This document shows, piece by piece, positions 2,854 through 60,530 of a stretch of 64,000 nucleotides of DNA; position 1 is the first letter of the stretch; every line of letters begins with the position of its first letter. The DNA comes from an uncultured Cardiobacteriales bacterium. GTDB lineage: Bacteria; Pseudomonadota; Gammaproteobacteria; CAYWWW01. Under the pieces are notes generated by a model, which worked only from the letters and a program-made list of their open reading frames with translations, was not told the origin of the DNA and ran no database searches. The position numbers and the translations under genes are program-made. The stretch lies in contig CAYWWW010000002.1 of the NCBI GenBank assembly GCA_964462205.1, forward strand, positions 71,223 through 135,222, given 5' to 3'.

Positions 2854-3789
2854 TTAATCGTATTGGGTTTCTAAGAACAGGCGATATTCTTTCGGAATGA
2901 CATTAAACATGCGGCAGATGGGACTGGCGAAACCATTGTCATAACAACCATATTGACGTTCTAAGGCTTCGCGCTGTTTGGGATACCAGCCGCAAAAACC
3001 GTGTAAATTCAAGCTGTCTTCATAACGGGATTTGTCCACGCGCATTTTGACATTGCTGAAAATATAGCCGCTGGGCGTGCGTAAGGCGCTGACAAAGGCT
3101 TTGGCACCACCTGGGGACTGACTGCTGCCGCGTTCATTGCAATCCAATTCCCAAAAAATACCGTTGGGTTGTTCGCGAACAATGGTTAATTCATAGCGAC
3201 GGCGATCAGCAGCGGGAACGGCTTCATTTTTGGACATATTGGGTAAGCGCAGGCTGTTTTCCATTGGGTTGTCGGGTACGCTTGGCAATTGTGGCGCACC
3301 GGGGAACATGCTGGCTAATGGATCATCAGGATTGGGTTTTTGTTCTTCGGCTTCGATTTTGGCTTTCATATCATTAAAAGGTAAGCCGTTGACAAATAAG
3401 CGAATAGAAGATATTTGTTGCGCGGGATTAGCCTCAACCAGCATGACCACGACATCTTGGCCGCAACGCACGGCGATCTGTTGTTCCACGGCGGGGTCTT
3501 CGGCACTTGGATATTTGCTACGCGCTTGTACTTCAAAATTACCTTCAGGGGTGCGCGTCAGTAAAAACTCGCCCTCTGGTTGAATGTCAATAATATCATT
3601 GTCATAGGTTTCAATGGTGGTGTTGCCGGTATAAACGCAGGTGCCAGTTTCATTGCCGTCACCATTAAAATCGGGTAAGCGGGTTTGTTCTTCTTGCGCG
3701 CCTTGGCCGGAACCAAAACCAAGCGGTGCGCCAAAAAAGGCCAAAACTGGCCAAATGGAAAAAAGAGAAAAAAGAAGCAGAAAGCGCAT
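2854..3789 (-). CDS. hypothetical secreted protein, unknown function
   Basis: ORF-track frame 2854..3867 trimmed to the ATG at 3789, which is preceded by AGGA; N-terminus MRFLLLFSLFSIWPVLA looks like a signal peptide; no catalytic motif recognised. Confidence 0.5.
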   Translation of the reverse strand: MRFLLLFSLFSIWPVLAFFGAPLGFGSGQGAQEEQTRLPDFNGDGNETGTCVYTGNTTIETYDNDIIDIQPEGEFLLTRTPEGNFEVQARSKYPSAEDPAVEQQIAVRCGQDVVVMLVEANPAQQISSIRLFVNGLPFNDMKAKIEAEEQKPNPDDPLASMFPGAPQLPSVPDNPMENSLRLPNMSKNEAVPAADRRRYELTIVREQPNGIFWELDCNERGSSQSPGGAKAFVSALRTPSGYIFSNVKMRVDKSRYEDSLNLHGFCGWYPKQREALERQYGCYDNGFASPICRMFNVIPKEYRLFLETQYD

Positions 3790-27825: not shown

Positions 27826-29220
27826 TTATTCTGCTTGTGCCAAGGGCATAATTTGACCAACGGTGAGATAACGCTCTTGAAAATATTGCTGAATAACATT
27901 TTTCAAGTCTTCATTGCTCACTTGCGCAATGCCATGATCAAAATAGGCATCGCTGGCTAAGGGCAGGCGCAAAGTGCTGTAATGTGCCAAGGTAAAGCCT
28001 TGATAAAAAATGCTATCCTGTTCATAAATGCGTTTGGCTTTCAAGCGGTTGCGAATGCGCTTAAACTCTTCTTCGCTTAAACCTTGATCAGCGATTTGTT
28101 GTAAGACTTGTTTTAAGGCTTCTTCTAAAGTGCTTAAACTATGACCAGGTTGTGGTTCAGCGGCGAGGATAAATAAGGTTTCTAGTCGTGCATCGGCGCT
28201 ATAACTACTGTCGGCATAGACAGCGATAGCTTGTTGACGAACCAAGGTTTGTGGTAAGCGGCTGCTATCACTGCCGGCCAGCGCTTCATTTAATACAGCC
28301 AAGGCAAAGGCGGGTTTGCCTTTCTCTAAAAAGGCTTCTTGGCTTATTGCCTGTTCTGTAGAAATTTCTTCGGCTAATAAACTTGGTAGCGTTGGCACAG
28401 GATAGGCAAGATATAGCAAATCATTTTGCGTATTGACTTCTAGGTTGATGACTTTCTTGCCAATAGGTTGAGGGTCTTGCTTAGTAGCGGGTTTATTTAA
28501 GGGTCGAGCAGGAATGTCGGAGAAATGCTTTTTGACCAAAGCAACAGCAGCAGCTACATCCACATCACCGGCCAAAACTAAAGTGGCGTTATTAGGTGAA
28601 TACCAAGTGGTAAACCAGTTTTTTACTTGATCAATGCTATAATTTTCAATATCTTGTCTCCAGCCAATAATCGGTTGGCGGTAGGGATTGGTGAAATAGG
28701 CTTGTGCATAAAAATATTCGTTGGCCTTGGCATAAGGATCATCTTCGCTGCGCAAAATACGTTCTTCTAAAACGACTTCTCGCTCACTTAAAAATTCCTT
28801 TTCTTTGAATAAGGGTGCGCGTAATCTATCGGCTTCTAAAGCCAAAATGGTATCGAGATGCTCCTTGGCAAATTTGGCGTAAAAGCCAGTAAAATCACGG
28901 CTGGTAAAAGCATTTTCTTCGCCGCCAAGTTTGGCAATGATGTTTGAGTATTGGCCATCGGGATACTGTGCGCTGCCTTTGAAGAGCATGTGTTCGAGCA
29001 TGTGCGAAATGCCAGTTTCGCCAGCTTTTTCATCGGCAGAACCAACACGATACCAAAGATGACTGACGATAATCGGCGCTTTGCTATTTTTTTGAATGAT
29101 CAAGCGTAAGCCATTGTCTAGGAAAAATTCCTGCGGTGCTTGCGTTTCAGCAAAAAGATTTTGTTGGATAAGAATTTGAAAAATAATTAAAAAAGTTAAG
29201 AATCGCATAATTTTTCTCAC
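27826..29220 (-). CDS. M16 family zinc peptidase (insulinase/pitrilysin-like)
   Basis: 464 aa with signal peptide; inverted zinc-binding motif HMLEH followed by a downstream Glu. Confidence 0.75.
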   Translation of the reverse strand: MRKIMRFLTFLIIFQILIQQNLFAETQAPQEFFLDNGLRLIIQKNSKAPIIVSHLWYRVGSADEKAGETGISHMLEHMLFKGSAQYPDGQYSNIIAKLGGEENAFTSRDFTGFYAKFAKEHLDTILALEADRLRAPLFKEKEFLSEREVVLEERILRSEDDPYAKANEYFYAQAYFTNPYRQPIIGWRQDIENYSIDQVKNWFTTWYSPNNATLVLAGDVDVAAAVALVKKHFSDIPARPLNKPATKQDPQPIGKKVINLEVNTQNDLLYLAYPVPTLPSLLAEEISTEQAISQEAFLEKGKPAFALAVLNEALAGSDSSRLPQTLVRQQAIAVYADSSYSADARLETLFILAAEPQPGHSLSTLEEALKQVLQQIADQGLSEEEFKRIRNRLKAKRIYEQDSIFYQGFTLAHYSTLRLPLASDAYFDHGIAQVSNEDLKNVIQQYFQERYLTVGQIMPLAQAE

Positions 29221-29402
29221 AAGTTGAAGAAAATAACAAAGCGCATAAACGCTGTGAACTGTCGAAGGGTAAATGCTGACTTAACATTTTGTCCAGACGG
29301 CGATTTATCGGGTTTCTTAATTTTTATCAAAAACTGCTTGGCTTTTTTTGGCATTTTATAACGCTTTTTGACAACCACTTTTAATCTATTTTTGGACAAG
29401 CA

Positions 29403-29612
29403 ATGGAAACTTTACAAACGCCTTTTGATCAAATTATTGAAATTCGTCAAATTATTCATGAAAGTGGCGTGCCTTTGCTGCGCTTGATTTTACGGGATGG
29501 ACAACGTTATCAATTGCTGGATTTGGATGTTGCTACGGCACATGCTTTGGGAAAAACGATCAAGATTTGGGCAGAGAAAACGGCGGCAAGTTTTAACCAG
29601 GAAAATTCCTAG
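29403..29612 (+). CDS. hypothetical small protein
   Basis: 69-aa ORF with ATG; weak ribosome-binding site; no recognised motif. Confidence 0.3.
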   Translation: METLQTPFDQIIEIRQIIHESGVPLLRLILRDGQRYQLLDLDVATAHALGKTIKIWAEKTAASFNQENS

Positions 29613-29672
29613 AAAAAACTTGCGCTTGGCTTCTCTTTAATTAGAAAATCTATATGAAGTAAATAATGTGTA

Positions 29673-30008
29673 CTAGAGGATCAGCGCATCTATTTTGGCG
29701 GCACAGATAAAATCATTTTCTGATAAGCCATTGATAGCGTGAGTGGTATAGGTTACTTGGCAAGTGTTATAACCAATGTGGAGGTCGGGATGATGATCTT
29801 CCTGATGCGAAACAAAGGCGATGGCATTAACCAACGCCATGATTTCATAGTGATTGCGGGCGCGAAAGCTGCGTGTTATCTGTGTGTAATTGCTGCTTAG
29901 TTGCCAATCGCTATGAATTTCGCTGCGCAGTTGGCTGATGGTGTCTTTCGTTAATGCAGGCATCCCACCTTCGCAGGCTTGGCAATGTTTTTGACGTAAA
30001 TCGCTCAT
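29673..30008 (-). CDS. phhB: pterin-4a-carbinolamine dehydratase
   Basis: 111 aa; signature EDHHPDLHIGYNTCQVTYTTHAINGLSENDF matches the PCD/DCoH motif; similar to Pseudomonas PhhB as recalled. Confidence 0.8.
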   Translation of the reverse strand: MSDLRQKHCQACEGGMPALTKDTISQLRSEIHSDWQLSSNYTQITRSFRARNHYEIMALVNAIAFVSHQEDHHPDLHIGYNTCQVTYTTHAINGLSENDFICAAKIDALIL

Positions 30009-30336
30009 GGTGTCCCCAAAATTCCCTCGTTATCAGCGAATTGGAAATAGCCAGCATTGAGATAATCAGTGACAGCAAGTACGTCTTCATCAAAATATTG
30101 CAAACCAAAGTGGACTTCGCAGGCTTGTACCATGTTTTTGAGTTTGCTTAGGTTGGTGGAGATACGTTCGGGTCGTTCATAAAGCAAAGCGCTTTTGAGC
30201 TTGAAAATTTTTGGACATGACAAGCGCTACAATCTTGTAAATAAAGTGTTTCTCCGGCAATTTGTCTGTCGCTGAATGGCGTAGCAAGAGCGGTAGTTGT
30301 GGCAAGAAAACCTAGTATTATCAATAAAAAAGGCAT
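30005..30336 (-). pseudogene. class I c-type cytochrome gene interrupted by a frameshift in an A5T4 homopolymer (or a sequencing error)
   Basis: GGAGG then ATG at 30336; signal peptide MPFLLIILGFLATTTALA; heme motif CSACH; frame stops at 30148 while the -1 frame continues to 30005 with a cytochrome-like C-terminus (KNMVQA..FDEDVLAVTDYL); run at about 30204..30212; stop overlaps the phhB start (ATGA). Confidence 0.5.
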
Positions 30337-30460
30337 TTTTCCTCCAAAATTGTTGAACCTTGAGCAGAAGCCAACCATACTGCGCATATTTTTTTGCTGC
30401 AACCTTAAAGCTGTGGCTGATAACGGTTTATTGCAGATAAATTTTTTCTAAATCAAAGTA

Positions 30461-31039
30461 ATGGAGAATTTTTTTGTGGAGAGAGTGAAAGATCGCTTGG
30501 TTTGGCTTGATTTGGAAATGACCGGTTTAGATACTTTTAATGATCAAATTATTGAAATTGCTACGATAGTTACCGATGCCGAATTAAATATTTTAGCCGA
30601 AGGTCCGGTTTTAGTCATTTATCAGGCTGAGGCGATCTTGGCGGCCATGGATGATTGGAATCAAAAGCAACACAGCGGCTCGGGTCTCCTGACACGGGTG
30701 CGTGCAAGTGGCCTCTCTTGTGCCGAGGCCGAGCAGCAAACTTTGGCTTTTCTCAAACGCTGGTTGCCGGCAAAAGCCTCGCCGATGTGCGGCAATAGTA
30801 TCTGCCAGGATCGACGATTTTTGGCGCGGTTAATGCCGGAGCTTGAAGATTTTTTTCATTATCGGAATTTAGATGTCAGTACGATAAAAGAGTTGGTCTT
30901 ACGGTGGTATCCTGAAGGGACTGCTAAATTTCAGAAAAAAAGCAGTCACTTGGCTTTGGATGATGTTCGGGATTCCATCGCCGAATTAAAGTTTTATCGC
31001 GAACATTTTTTTGTCTCGGCTAAGTCGTTTTTTTCATAA
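30461..31039 (+). CDS. orn: oligoribonuclease
   Basis: 192 aa; [32 protein letters not shown] and [14 protein letters not shown] parallel E. coli Orn as recalled. Confidence 0.9.
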
Positions 31040-31062
31040 AAACTACTCATAGCAGATAATTC

Positions 31063-31097
31063 GCACATCCTGATGTATTCAGAATGTGCTTTTTTTA
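31063..31097 (+). terminator. intrinsic terminator after orn
   Basis: stem GCACAT(CCTGA)/(TCAGA)ATGTGC followed by T7. Confidence 0.7.
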
Positions 31098-31155
31098 GCT
31101 TTTGATCTTATTGAAGATAAGTTAAAGACGAAGATTAAATAACTGTCGAAAAAAG

Positions 31156-33186
31156 TTATTCAGCGCCGTCCTCTTCCCCTTTGCTACGCTGGACGCTCGG
31201 ACGGTATTTGCGCCGTCGCAAGGGATAACGGCTGTTGCGTTTGCTATCCTCGTTGTCGTTATTCGCAGTCAACTTGGGGCGAATAATCACCGGTGCTTTA
31301 TCAGTTTTTTCGAGTTCGCTGGGATTTTTTTCGTTGGCTTTGTCTTGCTTTTCCAAAGCCTTGCCAGTTTTTTCTGCTGCTGGCGTTTTTTTGCTACCCG
31401 GCAACTGGACAGTTGGCGCTTGGCGTGGGGTGTCACTGAACTGATTTTTTGGCGTTGCTGGACTCGGCGTTGCTTCTACGACCTGTGCTATGGCCGTGGC
31501 TTGGCTTTTTTTCAGTGGTCGCGCAAACCATCTTAGCCAAAAACCTGACCAAAACCCGTAAGTTGCTTTGCTATCCTCTGTATCATTGGCGACGCTGGCC
31601 GTCTCTGCTGCTGGTTTTATGGCGAACAAACCTGGGTTGCTGGTCTGCGAGATATAGGCTTTATTTGGTTGTTGTTCTTTTAACCATTCGTAACTCCCCT
31701 TGCCTTCTGGTGCCGCGCTTACTACAACATCTTTGCTATCAATGTTTTGCAGATGTGGGTTGGGAATAACCAATAACTGTGTCTGGTAAAAACTTTCAAA
31801 TTCTTGAATAGTATGTCTTTTTTCATTCAAGAGATAAGTTGCAACATCCAGAGGTACTTGCGCGGTGATTTTGCCAGGCTTGCTTTCCGACTGCATCGCC
31901 AATTCATGACAGAGACGCAACACATAATCGGCAGAAGATGGCGTGCTGCGCACCCGACCAGAACCGCCACAGCGTGGACAAACAATTTGACTGGTTTCCC
32001 CCAAAGACGGTTGCAAGCGCTGGCGTGACATTTCCAGTAAACCAAAGCGGGAAATGCGACCGACTTGGACGCGGGCACGGTCTTGATACAGCGCTTCTTT
32101 GAGGCGATTTTCGACTTCGCGCTGGTGGCGATTGTCGCTCATATCAATAAAATCAATAACAATCAAGCCGCCAATATCGCGCAAGCGCAGTTGACGGGCG
32201 ATTTCATCTGCCGCTTCCAAGTTGGTATTTAAGGCAGTTTCTTCGATGTCGTTGCCGGCGGTGGCGCGGGCGGAGTTGATGTCAATGGCTACCAAGGCTT
32301 CGGTGTAATCCACGACAATCGAGCCGCCAGACGGCAGTTGAATTTCATGTTGATAGGCGGTTTCAATTTGATTTTCAACGCGAAATTGATTGAATAGCGG
32401 AATTTCCGACTCATAAAAATGCAGTTTTTCGACGCTGTGCGGCATCATGGTCTGCATAAAAGTTTTTGCTTCGGCAAAGCGCTCTGGTTCATCAATAAGA
32501 ATTTCGTCAATATCAGGCCGTAAATAATCGCGTAAGGCGCGAATAATCAGTTTGCTTTCTTGATGAATCAGTGCGGGTTTGCGCGACGGTTTCTGATAAG
32601 CCTCTTCAATGCTTTGCCAAACTTTCAATAAATAATCTAAATCCCATTGGAGCTCTTGTTGATTGCGGCCTACGCCGGCGGTGCGCACGATAATCCCCAT
32701 GCCCTCGGGGATGATAAGGCTCCCCATGATTTCCTTCATGGCTTGGCGGTCTTCGCCTTCGATGCGCCGCGACACGCCACCAGCGCGGGGATTATTCGGC
32801 ATCAATACCAGATAACGTCCAGCCAAACTGACATAAGTCGTCAGCGCAGCACCTTTGTTACCGCGTTCTTCTTTTTCAATTTGAACAATGACTTGCTGAC
32901 CTTCGCTGAGGCTGTCTTTGATCTGGCCACGGACGATATTGCCTTCCCCCTGCAAAAAATTACGGGCGATTTCTTTAAAAGGCAAAAAACCATGGCGTTC
33001 ACCACCATAATCCACAAACGCCGCTTCTAAGCTCGGTTCGATACGGGTGATGGTGCCTTTGTAAATATTGGCTTTTTTTTGTTCTCGACTTAACAGTTCG
33101 GTGTCGAAATCGTAGAGTTTGTCGCCATCCATGATTGCAACCCGAAGTTCTTCGGGATGGGTGGCATTGATTAACATCCGTTTCAT
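31156..33186 (-). CDS. rne: ribonuclease E (short-tail form)
   Basis: 676 aa; N-terminal S1 and catalytic region (MKRMLINAT..); Zn-link motif [10 protein letters not shown]; Arg/Lys-rich C-terminal tail; divergent from rluC as in E. coli. Confidence 0.85.
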
Positions 33187-33634
33187 AAAAAATCAGGTAC
33201 TCGTGAAAAAGGTTGAGAAAAGCGTTGCATGATAATTGGCAAAATAACGCGACCGGTGCAACGAAAAAAAGCGGCATTGGGATGCTTGGCAGGCGGCCAA
33301 GCCAGAATCCCGAGGCGCTGAATCGTACAAATCTTGATAGAAAGAGAGGTCTCTGACCGGGCAGACAGAATTGGTTAGACAGGACTTTTATGCGGCAGAA
33401 AAAAGCCCGATGACAGAAAAAAGTCAATACACGCCAGCCTATGCTTGAACGGCAGTGCGCTGCCAAAGCATATAGCAGCCATGCTATGCTCGCGTTTTTG
33501 ACAGTGGCGGATGTTTTATGGTGTGCATTATTGATAGATAAACCCAGCAGCCATAAAAACCATAAGTTGGTATTTTTATCAAACATTATCAATAGCTTGT
33601 TGAAGTTTGGTAAAGAGCATCCCTGGCTGTCGAG
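33187..33634 (-). promoter_or_regulatory. rne promoter and long 5-prime leader region (shared divergent region with rluC)
   Basis: 448-bp non-coding gap upstream of rne; E. coli rne has a long structured autoregulatory leader; contains one copy of the AGCATCCCAATGCC motif. Confidence 0.4.
33274..33287 (-). repeat. conserved motif AGCATCCCAATGCC, copy in the rne leader
   Basis: minus-strand reading gives GCCAAGCATCCCAATGCCG; other copies at 39262..39275 and 45908..45920 in the same orientation as the downstream gene. Confidence 0.5.
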
Positions 33635-33673
33635 GTGTGGCCTTTCAACTTTTTTCTTTCTGGTTCTCTCTGC

Positions 33674-34699
33674 ATGGTCAAGCCGTTTTCTTTAGAAAAT
33701 AATCTGTTACAAGTTGCTACTGCCTACGCTGGACAGCGTTTGGATAATTTTTTGCTCTCGCGTTTGCCGCTGACGCGCGGGCATTTGTATAAGTTGATCC
33801 GTACCGGTCAGATCCGCGTCAATGGCAGCCGACAAGCGCCATCGGCGAGGTTAGCCAGCGGTGACGCGATTCGTCTGCCGCCTTTTTTATGTCAGCCCAC
33901 CTGCCAAATGCCGCCACCGCTGCTGCCAGAGCGGGCGAGAAGCGCGCTAAAAACCGCCATTATTTTTGAAAATGATGCTTTTATTGTGCTAGATAAACCC
34001 GCCGGCATTCCCGCCCACGCCGGCAGCGGTTTGCAGTATGGCGTGATTGACATTGTAAGACAACAACTGCCCAACTTCCCCGACTTGGCCTTGGTACACC
34101 GCCTTGATCGTGCCACCAGCGGTCTTTTATTGTTGGCTAAAACCCCGACTGTTTTGCGAACGTTGATCGCGCAGTGGCCAAGTGTTGAAAAAACCTACCT
34201 CGGCGTGGTGGATGATCAACACAACTATTGGCAGTCGAATGACCAGCCACCGACACGAGCTTGGCGTGCGGTGACTTTACCGTTATGGCGTGTGCCGCCG
34301 GAACAAGCTGACAAAGCCAAAGGTAAAGTGCTGGTGCATCCCAATGGCAAAACCGCGCAGACCGATTTTTTTTGTCTCGCCAGTGCGTCAAGCAGCGAGC
34401 AACATCGTCCATGGCGCTTGTTGGCAGCACAACTGCACAGCGGTCGGATGCACCAGATTCGCGTTCATGCCGCGGCTTCTGGTTTTCCCTTGGCCGGCGA
34501 TGTCTTATATCATCCCAAGCCGCGCTGGCCTTCGCCGGAATGGACGGGTTTGCTATTACATGCTTGGCAGTTATCGTTTATTTGGGAAGGGGAAAGGCAG
34601 CTTTTTCAGGCAGATCCGCAACATTGGCACAGCGCTTTACCACGGCTGTTTCCTGATTTTTCGCTGAAAAATGCCGAATTGCCAACGGCCAAGCCATAA
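33674..34699 (+). CDS. rluC: 23S rRNA pseudouridine synthase RluC-like
   Basis: start trimmed to the ATG at 33674; S4-like N-terminus and catalytic HRLDRATSGLLLLAK motif; divergent from rne. Confidence 0.75.
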   Translation: MVKPFSLENNLLQVATAYAGQRLDNFLLSRLPLTRGHLYKLIRTGQIRVNGSRQAPSARLASGDAIRLPPFLCQPTCQMPPPLLPERARSALKTAIIFENDAFIVLDKPAGIPAHAGSGLQYGVIDIVRQQLPNFPDLALVHRLDRATSGLLLLAKTPTVLRTLIAQWPSVEKTYLGVVDDQHNYWQSNDQPPTRAWRAVTLPLWRVPPEQADKAKGKVLVHPNGKTAQTDFFCLASASSSEQHRPWRLLAAQLHSGRMHQIRVHAAASGFPLAGDVLYHPKPRWPSPEWTGLLLHAWQLSFIWEGERQLFQADPQHWHSALPRLFPDFSLKNAELPTAKP

Positions 34700-44491: not shown

Positions 44492-44543
44492 AAATACGAT
44501 GGAAGGAAAAGAATGCTAGGCGGTATAAAAGAAATGCAAGAAA

Positions 44544-44627
44544 TACCGGAGGTCGGACTCGAACCGACACTGTGTCACCACAATCGGATTTTGAATCCGA
44601 CGCGTCTACCGATTTCGCCACTCCGGC
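44544..44627 (-). tRNA. tRNA-Leu (anticodon CAA)
   Basis: minus-strand sequence GCCGGAGTGGCGAAATCGGTAGACGCGTCGGATTCAAAATCCGATTGTGGTGACACAGTGTCGGTTCGAGTCCGACCTCCGGTA folds as a class II tRNA with long variable arm; anticodon loop TTCAAAA; CCA not encoded. Confidence 0.85.
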
Positions 44628-44662
44628 AAGGAAGTGCGGCATTATAGGGATTTTTTTTGGCC

Positions 44663-60238: not shown

Positions 60239-60368
60239 AAGTTAGAACTTTAAAAAAGTAGAAAAAATTTTTTACAACAAACTTTTTTCAGCAAAGTGAC
60301 TTGATGAGGTCTTGAGAGATGTTGCTTTTCGTAGAAGCAAAGATTCTGAAAAGAAATGAGAAAAATTA

Positions 60369-60441
60369 TGTCCTGGATAGGAGTTGAACCTATGACCTTC
60401 CCCTTAGGAGGGGGACGCTCTATCCACTGAGCTACCAAGAC
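60369..60441 (-). tRNA. tRNA-Arg (anticodon CCT)
   Basis: minus-strand sequence GTCTTGGTAGCTCAGTGGATAGAGCGTCCCCCTCCTAAGGGGAAGGTCATAGGTTCAACTCCTATCCAGGACA folds into a canonical cloverleaf with 7-bp acceptor stem; anticodon loop CTCCTAA; CCA not encoded. Confidence 0.85.
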
Positions 60442-60530
60442 AAGACTGATGAGGTTAGGCAAAAAGATAACCAGCGTCAAGTATTTGCTAGGGCTTCTTT
60501 ATGGATTTTTTGTTTACCAATGTAACCTAA

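Follow-up and report, generated by a model that had tools for sequence, protein, structure and literature searches.

The present study concerns a small c-type cytochrome gene located directly upstream of phhB in a 64,000-nucleotide stretch of DNA from an uncultured Cardiobacteriales bacterium (contig CAYWWW010000002.1, positions 71,223 to 135,222; hereafter the window, whose own numbering is used throughout). We consider it probable, at about 0.78, that this gene, which codes for a small periplasmic monoheme cytochrome of the c type, was inactivated recently by a 5-nt duplication and is now either a pseudogene or a strain-level null allele. A first-pass annotation, made from the sequence alone, had placed a frameshift in an A5T4 run of the same gene and had offered homopolymer sequencing error, a recent pseudogene, or slippage-dependent expression as its explanation. 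The pseudogene option is the one favored here, with a very recent origin, but its cause is the pentamer duplication and not the A5T4 run.

Position and nature of the lesion

Direct reading bore out the split layout that had been proposed, from the GGAGG and the ATG at 30336 through CSACH to the stop at 30148, with a second frame running to 30005. The elements of the gene are as follows.

30341 to 30345, minus strand: Shine-Dalgarno (SD) element GGAGG, 4 nt (four A's) ahead of the ATG at 30336, read directly
30148 to 30336, minus strand: frame A open reading frame (ORF), 62 amino acids and a stop, TAA at 30150 to 30148
30217 to 30231, minus strand: heme-attachment motif CSACH, codons 36 to 40, read directly
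30204 to 30213, minus strand: the CAAAAATTTT (A5T4) run, which is in frame, codes for Q-K-F, and is not the lesion
30181 to 30190, minus strand: the lesion, an exact 5-nt tandem duplication GCTTT|GCTTT, the sole indel in the alignment to an intact ortholog
30005 to 30181, minus strand: the out-of-frame C-terminal 58 codons and TGA (YERPERIS...VQAC...YFDEDVLAVTDYLN...), which carry Cys71 and the YLN..Y.F motif

Frame A reads MPFLL...CSACHVQKFSSSKALCFMNDPNVSPPT* (full product MPFLLIILGFLATTTALATPFSDRQIAGETLYLQDCSACHVQKFSSSKALCFMNDPNVSPPT). It is made up of a hydrophobic, signal-like N-terminus, CSACH, 10 authentic residues (VQKFSSSKAL), and 12 out-of-frame residues before the TAA. Frame B, the −1 frame, is open on the minus strand from 30226 to the TGA at 30007 to 30005 and encodes ...YERPERISTNLSKLKNMVQACEVHFGLQYFDEDVLAVTDYLNAGYFQFADNEGILGTP.

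When the two parts were joined and compared with the protein set, three matches were obtained. One is an intact protein of 122 amino acids (P0001, ...CSACHIQRFSSSEALYQRPERISTSLSKL..., E=1e-48) from JGI metagenome 3300040982, which represents a pink/white/grey microbial mat in the outflow of a Yellowstone hot spring (44.2 °C, pH 8.3; PMC9600594). The other two come from the interrupted gene. P0003, present in NCBI and Logan, is exactly frame A with its 62 amino acids, and P0002 covers the C-terminal part, its gene call starting at the TTG at 30187 on a Logan contig; both gene calls are annotation artefacts of the pseudogene.

The intact ortholog places the lesion precisely. Frame A matches it through FSSSKAL (FSSSEAL in the ortholog), past the A5T4 run, and frame B matches only from YERPERIS. 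Since the residues FSSSKAL match the ortholog, the frame is still correct 3′ of the run. Furthermore, the ortholog counterpart of the run, CAAAGATTCT, has the same frame and equal length. In the DNA alignment between the window and the ortholog contig (L001), AAAGC GCTTT GCTTT ATGAA stands against GAAGC ----- ACTTT ATCAA; the two-copy state in the window is GCTTTGCTTT. The duplication sits between codons Leu50 and Tyr51 and shifts the frame into the one that stops at 30148. In a tblastn search of the window with the ortholog protein, the high-scoring segments cover 30378 to 30187 and 30196 to 30014 in two frames, so that the frame switch falls at 30187 to 30196. These two segments and the match of the joined protein at E=1e-48 show that the split gene is no chance arrangement of ORFs. 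A sole indel together with a frame switch at the GCTTT repeat therefore identifies the lesion as a 5-nt tandem duplication and not as a one-base loss. Removal of one GCTTT copy yields a protein of 108 amino acids whose gap-free alignment to the ortholog shows 81% amino acid identity.

The loss of one base from the A5T4 run deserves practically no weight as an alternative. One base added in the run (30213 to 30204) does yield a continuous ORF of 110 amino acids, and to that extent the earlier expectation of a continuous protein of about 110 residues stood. Its length and sequence did not: this repair mispredicts eight residues (VQKIFKLKSALLYE, which should be VQKFSSSKALYE) and adds two. The DNA alignment to the ortholog rules out the one-base deletion, as the run is unaltered and followed by authentic in-frame residues, and the only indel lies 14 to 23 nt beyond it.

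Age of the lesion and selection on the gene

Selection was assessed by the Nei-Gojobori method, comparing the 5-nt-corrected window gene with the ortholog. The ratios of nonsynonymous to synonymous divergence (dN/dS) were as follows.

Whole gene: dN/dS 0.10
Mature part: dN/dS 0.064
Mature part upstream of the lesion, codons 20 to 50: dN/dS 0.03
The 58 codons downstream of the lesion: dN/dS 0.087

The dS was about 1.0 for the whole gene and for the downstream part, and 1.1 to 1.4 for both mature-part rows. These ratios reveal purifying selection on the ancestral gene, which appears to have acted throughout nearly all of the divergence between the window and the ortholog. Frame B contains no second indel or stop. 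As a rough estimate from the same sequences, the frameshift would be at most a few percent of the divergence time old. A normally well-conserved small cytochrome (dN/dS about 0.06 to 0.1) would have been lost very recently in one lineage, with its partner phhB intact.

The ortholog contig is otherwise a close match to the window. Both carry rne, orn, the cytochrome gene, the gene for pterin-4a-carbinolamine dehydratase (PCD, here phhB), DUF6967, two M16 peptidases, rsmD, coaD, and ferredoxin in the same order, with DNA identity of about 78 to 87%, and the shared genes other than the cytochrome are all intact. It is the only close ortholog found. A species-representative genome collection contained no match to the protein patterns or to the degenerate DNA pattern of the cytochrome, and a first metagenome scan for the cytochrome gave no match either.

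Expected consequences for the cytochrome and for phhB

The proposed course of events is as follows. Replication slippage would have duplicated the pentamer GCTTT between the Leu50 and Tyr51 codons. Translation from the ATG at 30336 then leaves the authentic frame after ...CSACHVQKFSSSKAL, passes through 12 wrong codons, and stops at 30148. The resulting product of 62 amino acids keeps the signal-like N-terminus and the heme-attachment motif, and the 58 C-terminal residues, comprising two core helices and the third Cys, are no longer translated from the authentic start. Because these two helices and the invariant third Cys are missing, the truncated product is expected to be unable to form a functional cytochrome.

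The lesion may also affect the downstream gene, which adjoins the cytochrome as follows.

30005 to 30008, minus strand: ATGA overlap of the cytochrome stop and the phhB start, read directly
29673 to 30008, minus strand: phhB, intact PCD gene of 111 amino acids, assigned with Pfam and NCBIfam

The PCD assignment is supported by Pfam PF01329 (Pterin_4a; E=2.5e-27, 95.3 bits against a cut-off of 26) and by the NCBIfam equivalog NF002019 (144.9 bits against a cut-off of 137). The overlap of the true cytochrome stop with the phhB start, noted in the first-pass annotation, is confirmed, and it is kept in the ortholog contig, where the gene calls are 2964 to 3332 and 3329 to 3670. The SD segment of the cytochrome gene, TTTGGAGG, is likewise kept there in the DNA alignment. 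In an intact gene, ribosomes would terminate on the very ATGA that starts the PCD gene. In the window, they would stop some 140 nt short of it. Any translational coupling from the cytochrome to phhB would consequently be lost, and phhB would have to initiate alone, on its own weak SD-like element, GGGGA. A scan for promoters and terminators gave no promoter signal above the shuffle background.

Artefact, recoding, and reversible switching

Is the interruption a property of the organism? It could instead stem from an artefact of assembly or consensus calling, or represent a minority variant, with one GCTTT copy and an intact cytochrome gene of 108 amino acids in the organism itself. The strong purifying selection on the downstream part, its freedom from a second lesion, and the intact state of all other family members (80/80) would fit such a case. 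However, a 5-nt tandem duplication outside a homopolymer is atypical of sequencing error, and the homopolymer error proposed earlier is ruled out by the non-homopolymer indel at 30181 to 30190. The same insertion is present in a separately built assembly: the Logan assembly of SRR7048222 contains a contig of 3569 nt that is 100% identical to window positions 28819 to 32387, insertion included. Furthermore, the rest of the window shows no indel noise; it is 91% coding, with many long intact ORFs (up to 1034 amino acids) and no other adjacent split ORFs. Several points weigh against an inactivated gene nonetheless. The support for the insertion comes from assembled contigs and not from reads, and the Logan contig and the deposited assembly may share one read set, in which case they are not independent samples. 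The insertion could also be one allele of a population, should the record be a metagenome-assembled genome. The timing, too, rests on a single pairwise comparison, because one close ortholog was found. As the evidence consists of assemblies, perhaps from the same reads, we keep a small but tangible share of the probability for an artefact or a minority allele, and regard it as unlikely.

The gene could also be interrupted and still be expressed. Rescue by a frame shift is possible only within 30226 to 30151, where both frames overlap for 76 nt. This overlap takes in the CAAAAATTTT run, at which a programmed −1 ribosomal shift or transcriptional slippage might restore a full-length cytochrome with the junction peptide VQKF-FKLKSALLYERPE. 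Such a product might even fold, as family members differ in the length of the loop that joins CxxCH to Tyr51 (occupancy about 0.5 at positions 42 to 47). However, the overlap contains no X_XXY_YYZ heptamer in frame A (the sole heptamer, at 30331, lies outside it) and no run of at least 6 nt. Beyond the run, the RNA shows no excess of structure over shuffled sequences (minimum free energy −10.1 kcal/mol against −11.8 on average for the shuffles, z=+0.61). Both the frameshift and the run are missing from the close ortholog, and it and 80 other members are single ORFs that need no shift. With no heptamer, no excess structure, and no conserved shift, programmed frameshifting is rejected, and slippage-dependent expression in general, which had been proposed earlier, has no support and is very improbable. 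Somewhat less remote, and still quite unlikely, is a reversible on/off switch, in which slipped-strand mispairing adds and removes copies of the 5-nt unit and makes the cytochrome, and through coupling the PCD, phase-variable. In its favor, the lesion repeats its unit exactly, reversion rates are elevated for tandem duplications, and the frame beyond the lesion remains undamaged. In contrast, known contingency loci have many copies of their repeat unit, and there are only two copies here; the ortholog has no repeat at this place (ACTTTAT), and no other family member examined carries a repeat-based interruption. In principle the duplication could revert, but nothing indicates a phase-variable design. 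Recent inactivation by the pentamer duplication thus remains the preferred explanation. For annotation, it means that the two short ORFs belong together as one pseudogene, and that its repair consists of removing 5 nt at 30181 to 30190.

An uncharacterized subfamily of small cytochromes

With the intact ortholog as query, an exhaustive search by HMMER retrieved 155 cluster representatives at E<=1e-3, mostly of 90 to 125 amino acids. Pfam Cytochrome_CBB3 was matched by 29 of 40 representatives at E<=0.01, and a profile built from the representatives matched cytochrome c6 in the PDB at 1e-6. Pfam and NCBIfam yielded no model specific to the family. The window protein itself scores 15.1 bits against PF13442 (Cytochrome_CBB3; cut-off 27) and 13.7 bits against PF00034 (Cytochrom_C; cut-off 21.3), and with scores below the cut-offs its assignment to class I relies on its relatives, by way of profile and fold evidence. 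The one-base-corrected protein of the first-pass annotation likewise gave only sub-threshold cytochrome matches in Pfam, NCBIfam, and PDB sequence searches.

With the family alignment, AlphaFold2 returned a confident model (predicted local distance difference test score, pLDDT, of 83, core above 90), and the protein is assigned the cytochrome c fold, defined by N- and C-terminal helices that pack around the heme. Without the alignment, the model was useless (pLDDT 36), and Foldseek against the PDB was weakly informative. The 5-nt-corrected window protein has all the family signatures, namely CxxCH, Y-x-R-x-[DE]-R, L..V..C, [WY]F[DE][ED][DE], and YLN..[YF]Y.F. As these motifs are all present and are split over two frames by the duplication, the window locus is a disrupted member of the family. 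The cytochrome c identity proposed earlier thus holds, given CSACH, the modelled fold, and the match of the relatives' profile to cytochrome c6. By sequence, the protein is predicted to be a small, periplasmic, class I-like monoheme cytochrome c of a widespread but uncharacterized subfamily of about 100 amino acids.

The sixth heme ligand departs from the class I pattern. Conservation was examined in 216 distinct aligned members, comprising the 155 representatives and the ORFs of 80 metagenomic loci. Cys36, Cys39, and His40 of CxxCH are invariant, and the C-terminal positions L64, V68, L91, N92, and Y96 are more than 90% conserved. The Met of KNMVQA (Met67), which had been named as a ligand candidate, is Met in 9% of the members and Gln in 70%. 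Together with the deletion, in the family profile alignment, of the Met-bearing loop of cytochrome c6 (..NAMPAF..), this rules out Met67 as the sixth ligand. No other Met or His is conserved among the 216 members, so the C-terminal half offers no conserved Met or His ligand of the class I type. What is conserved is the third Cys (Cys71), four positions after that Met and present in 99%. From the alignment, the sixth ligand is thus not the canonical Met, and the nearly invariant Cys is a candidate in its place, with His/Cys ligation as a possibility.

The N-terminus of the window protein, MPFLLIILGFLATTTALATP, is hydrophobic and modelled as a helix, and it has no basic residue unless an SD-less upstream ATG is used; the N-termini of relatives are typical signal-like sequences led by MK or MR. 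This second in-frame ATG, at 30376 to 30378 on the minus strand (MVGFCSRFNNFGGK-MPF...), is open in the window and in the ortholog alike, and the JGI gene call of the ortholog begins at its counterpart. It lacks an SD element, and the 14 residues that it adds are poorly conserved, except those coded by the SD of the 30336 start. Use of this start would supply the signal-like N-terminus with its otherwise absent basic residues.

Genomic neighborhood and the pairing with PCD

The neighbors of the pair in the window are divergent from the cytochrome gene on one side and convergent with phhB on the other.

30461 to 31039, plus strand: orn, oligoribonuclease (RNase_T domain, Pfam), divergent neighbor of the cytochrome gene
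29403 to 29612, plus strand: DUF6967 ORF of 69 amino acids, convergent with phhB (Pfam E=2.9e-17), present also in L001 and L002

A cytochrome c upstream of and overlapping phhB had been called unusual, and the metagenomic loci contradict this. A family pattern from a 10-sequence subset found 80 loci, 73 of them with sufficient downstream DNA, and the cytochrome ORF was intact in all 80. The gene directly after the cytochrome is PCD in 39/73, rsgA in 29/73, and another gene in 5/73, proportions that describe that subfamily only, because the loci were selected by one C-terminal motif. With PCD directly following in 39 of the 73, its adjacency is typical for the family. Very often the cytochrome gene is co-oriented with the gene for the cytoplasmic PCD and overlaps or adjoins it, with −26 to +17 nt between its stop and the PCD start, and the partner PCDs all belong to NF002019, the same equivalog as the window PCD. 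Distant members (about 30 to 35% identity) show arrangements of orn beside an M48 peptidase gene, followed by cytochrome, PCD, and rsgA. In most related loci orn adjoins the cytochrome and serves as a neighborhood anchor, and the cytochrome gene is mostly placed between orn and rsgA, often behind an M48 peptidase gene. The loci of this unnamed family are apparently gammaproteobacterial in type.

A different branch of the family has thioredoxin and PIG-L genes after the cytochrome gene and rhodanese close by, a possible sign of a setting related to thiols or sulfur. The thioredoxin gene and the PIG-L deacetylase-like gene after the cytochrome are seen in L005 (4001 to 5714), L006 (101 to 4246), and L008 (4001 to 8339). 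L006 and L008 also have a response regulator with an HD domain, rhodanese, and a TPR-thioredoxin nearby, and L005 has a histidine kinase/response-regulator gene instead.

Whether the cytochrome-PCD pairing reflects a real functional link and not inherited gene order, for example between a redox- or thiol-sensing cytochrome and pterin- or molybdopterin-related metabolism, is doubtful, and we offer it as a tentative idea. If it were true, the window would represent a natural cytochrome knockout in which the PCD gene is retained. Literature searches returned nothing relevant on a cytochrome c/PCD link and no description of the pairing or of the third-Cys family. The frameshift itself is an ordinary event; a modest lead lies in the cytochrome family and in how often its members are paired with PCD.

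Other features of the window

A non-coding stretch of 448 nt (33187 to 33634) lies between the divergent rne (31156 to 33186, minus strand) and a pseudouridine synthase gene (33635 to 34699, plus strand). It is plausibly a long rne (RNase E) leader; no Rfam family reached threshold there. Only two RNA genes were detected in the window, both on the minus strand, tRNA-Leu(CAA) at 44543 to 44628 and tRNA-Arg(CCT) at 60368 to 60442.

Comparison with known systems

His/Cys axial heme ligation occurs in SoxA, TsdA, and DsrJ. The likeness of the present family to these proteins would be one of ligation type; specific sequence similarity to them is absent. In contrast to class I cytochromes such as cytochrome c6 and SorB of sulfite dehydrogenase, the family is devoid of the Met loop and has instead a third Cys that is 99% conserved. 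The closest comparison is with the unnamed orn/rsgA-linked family itself. As in that family, the window cytochrome adjoins orn and lies directly upstream of a PCD of NF002019. The window lineage differs in having neither the M48 peptidase nor rsgA, the locus continuing with DUF6967 and two M16 peptidases, and the window copy is the sole interrupted one among those examined.
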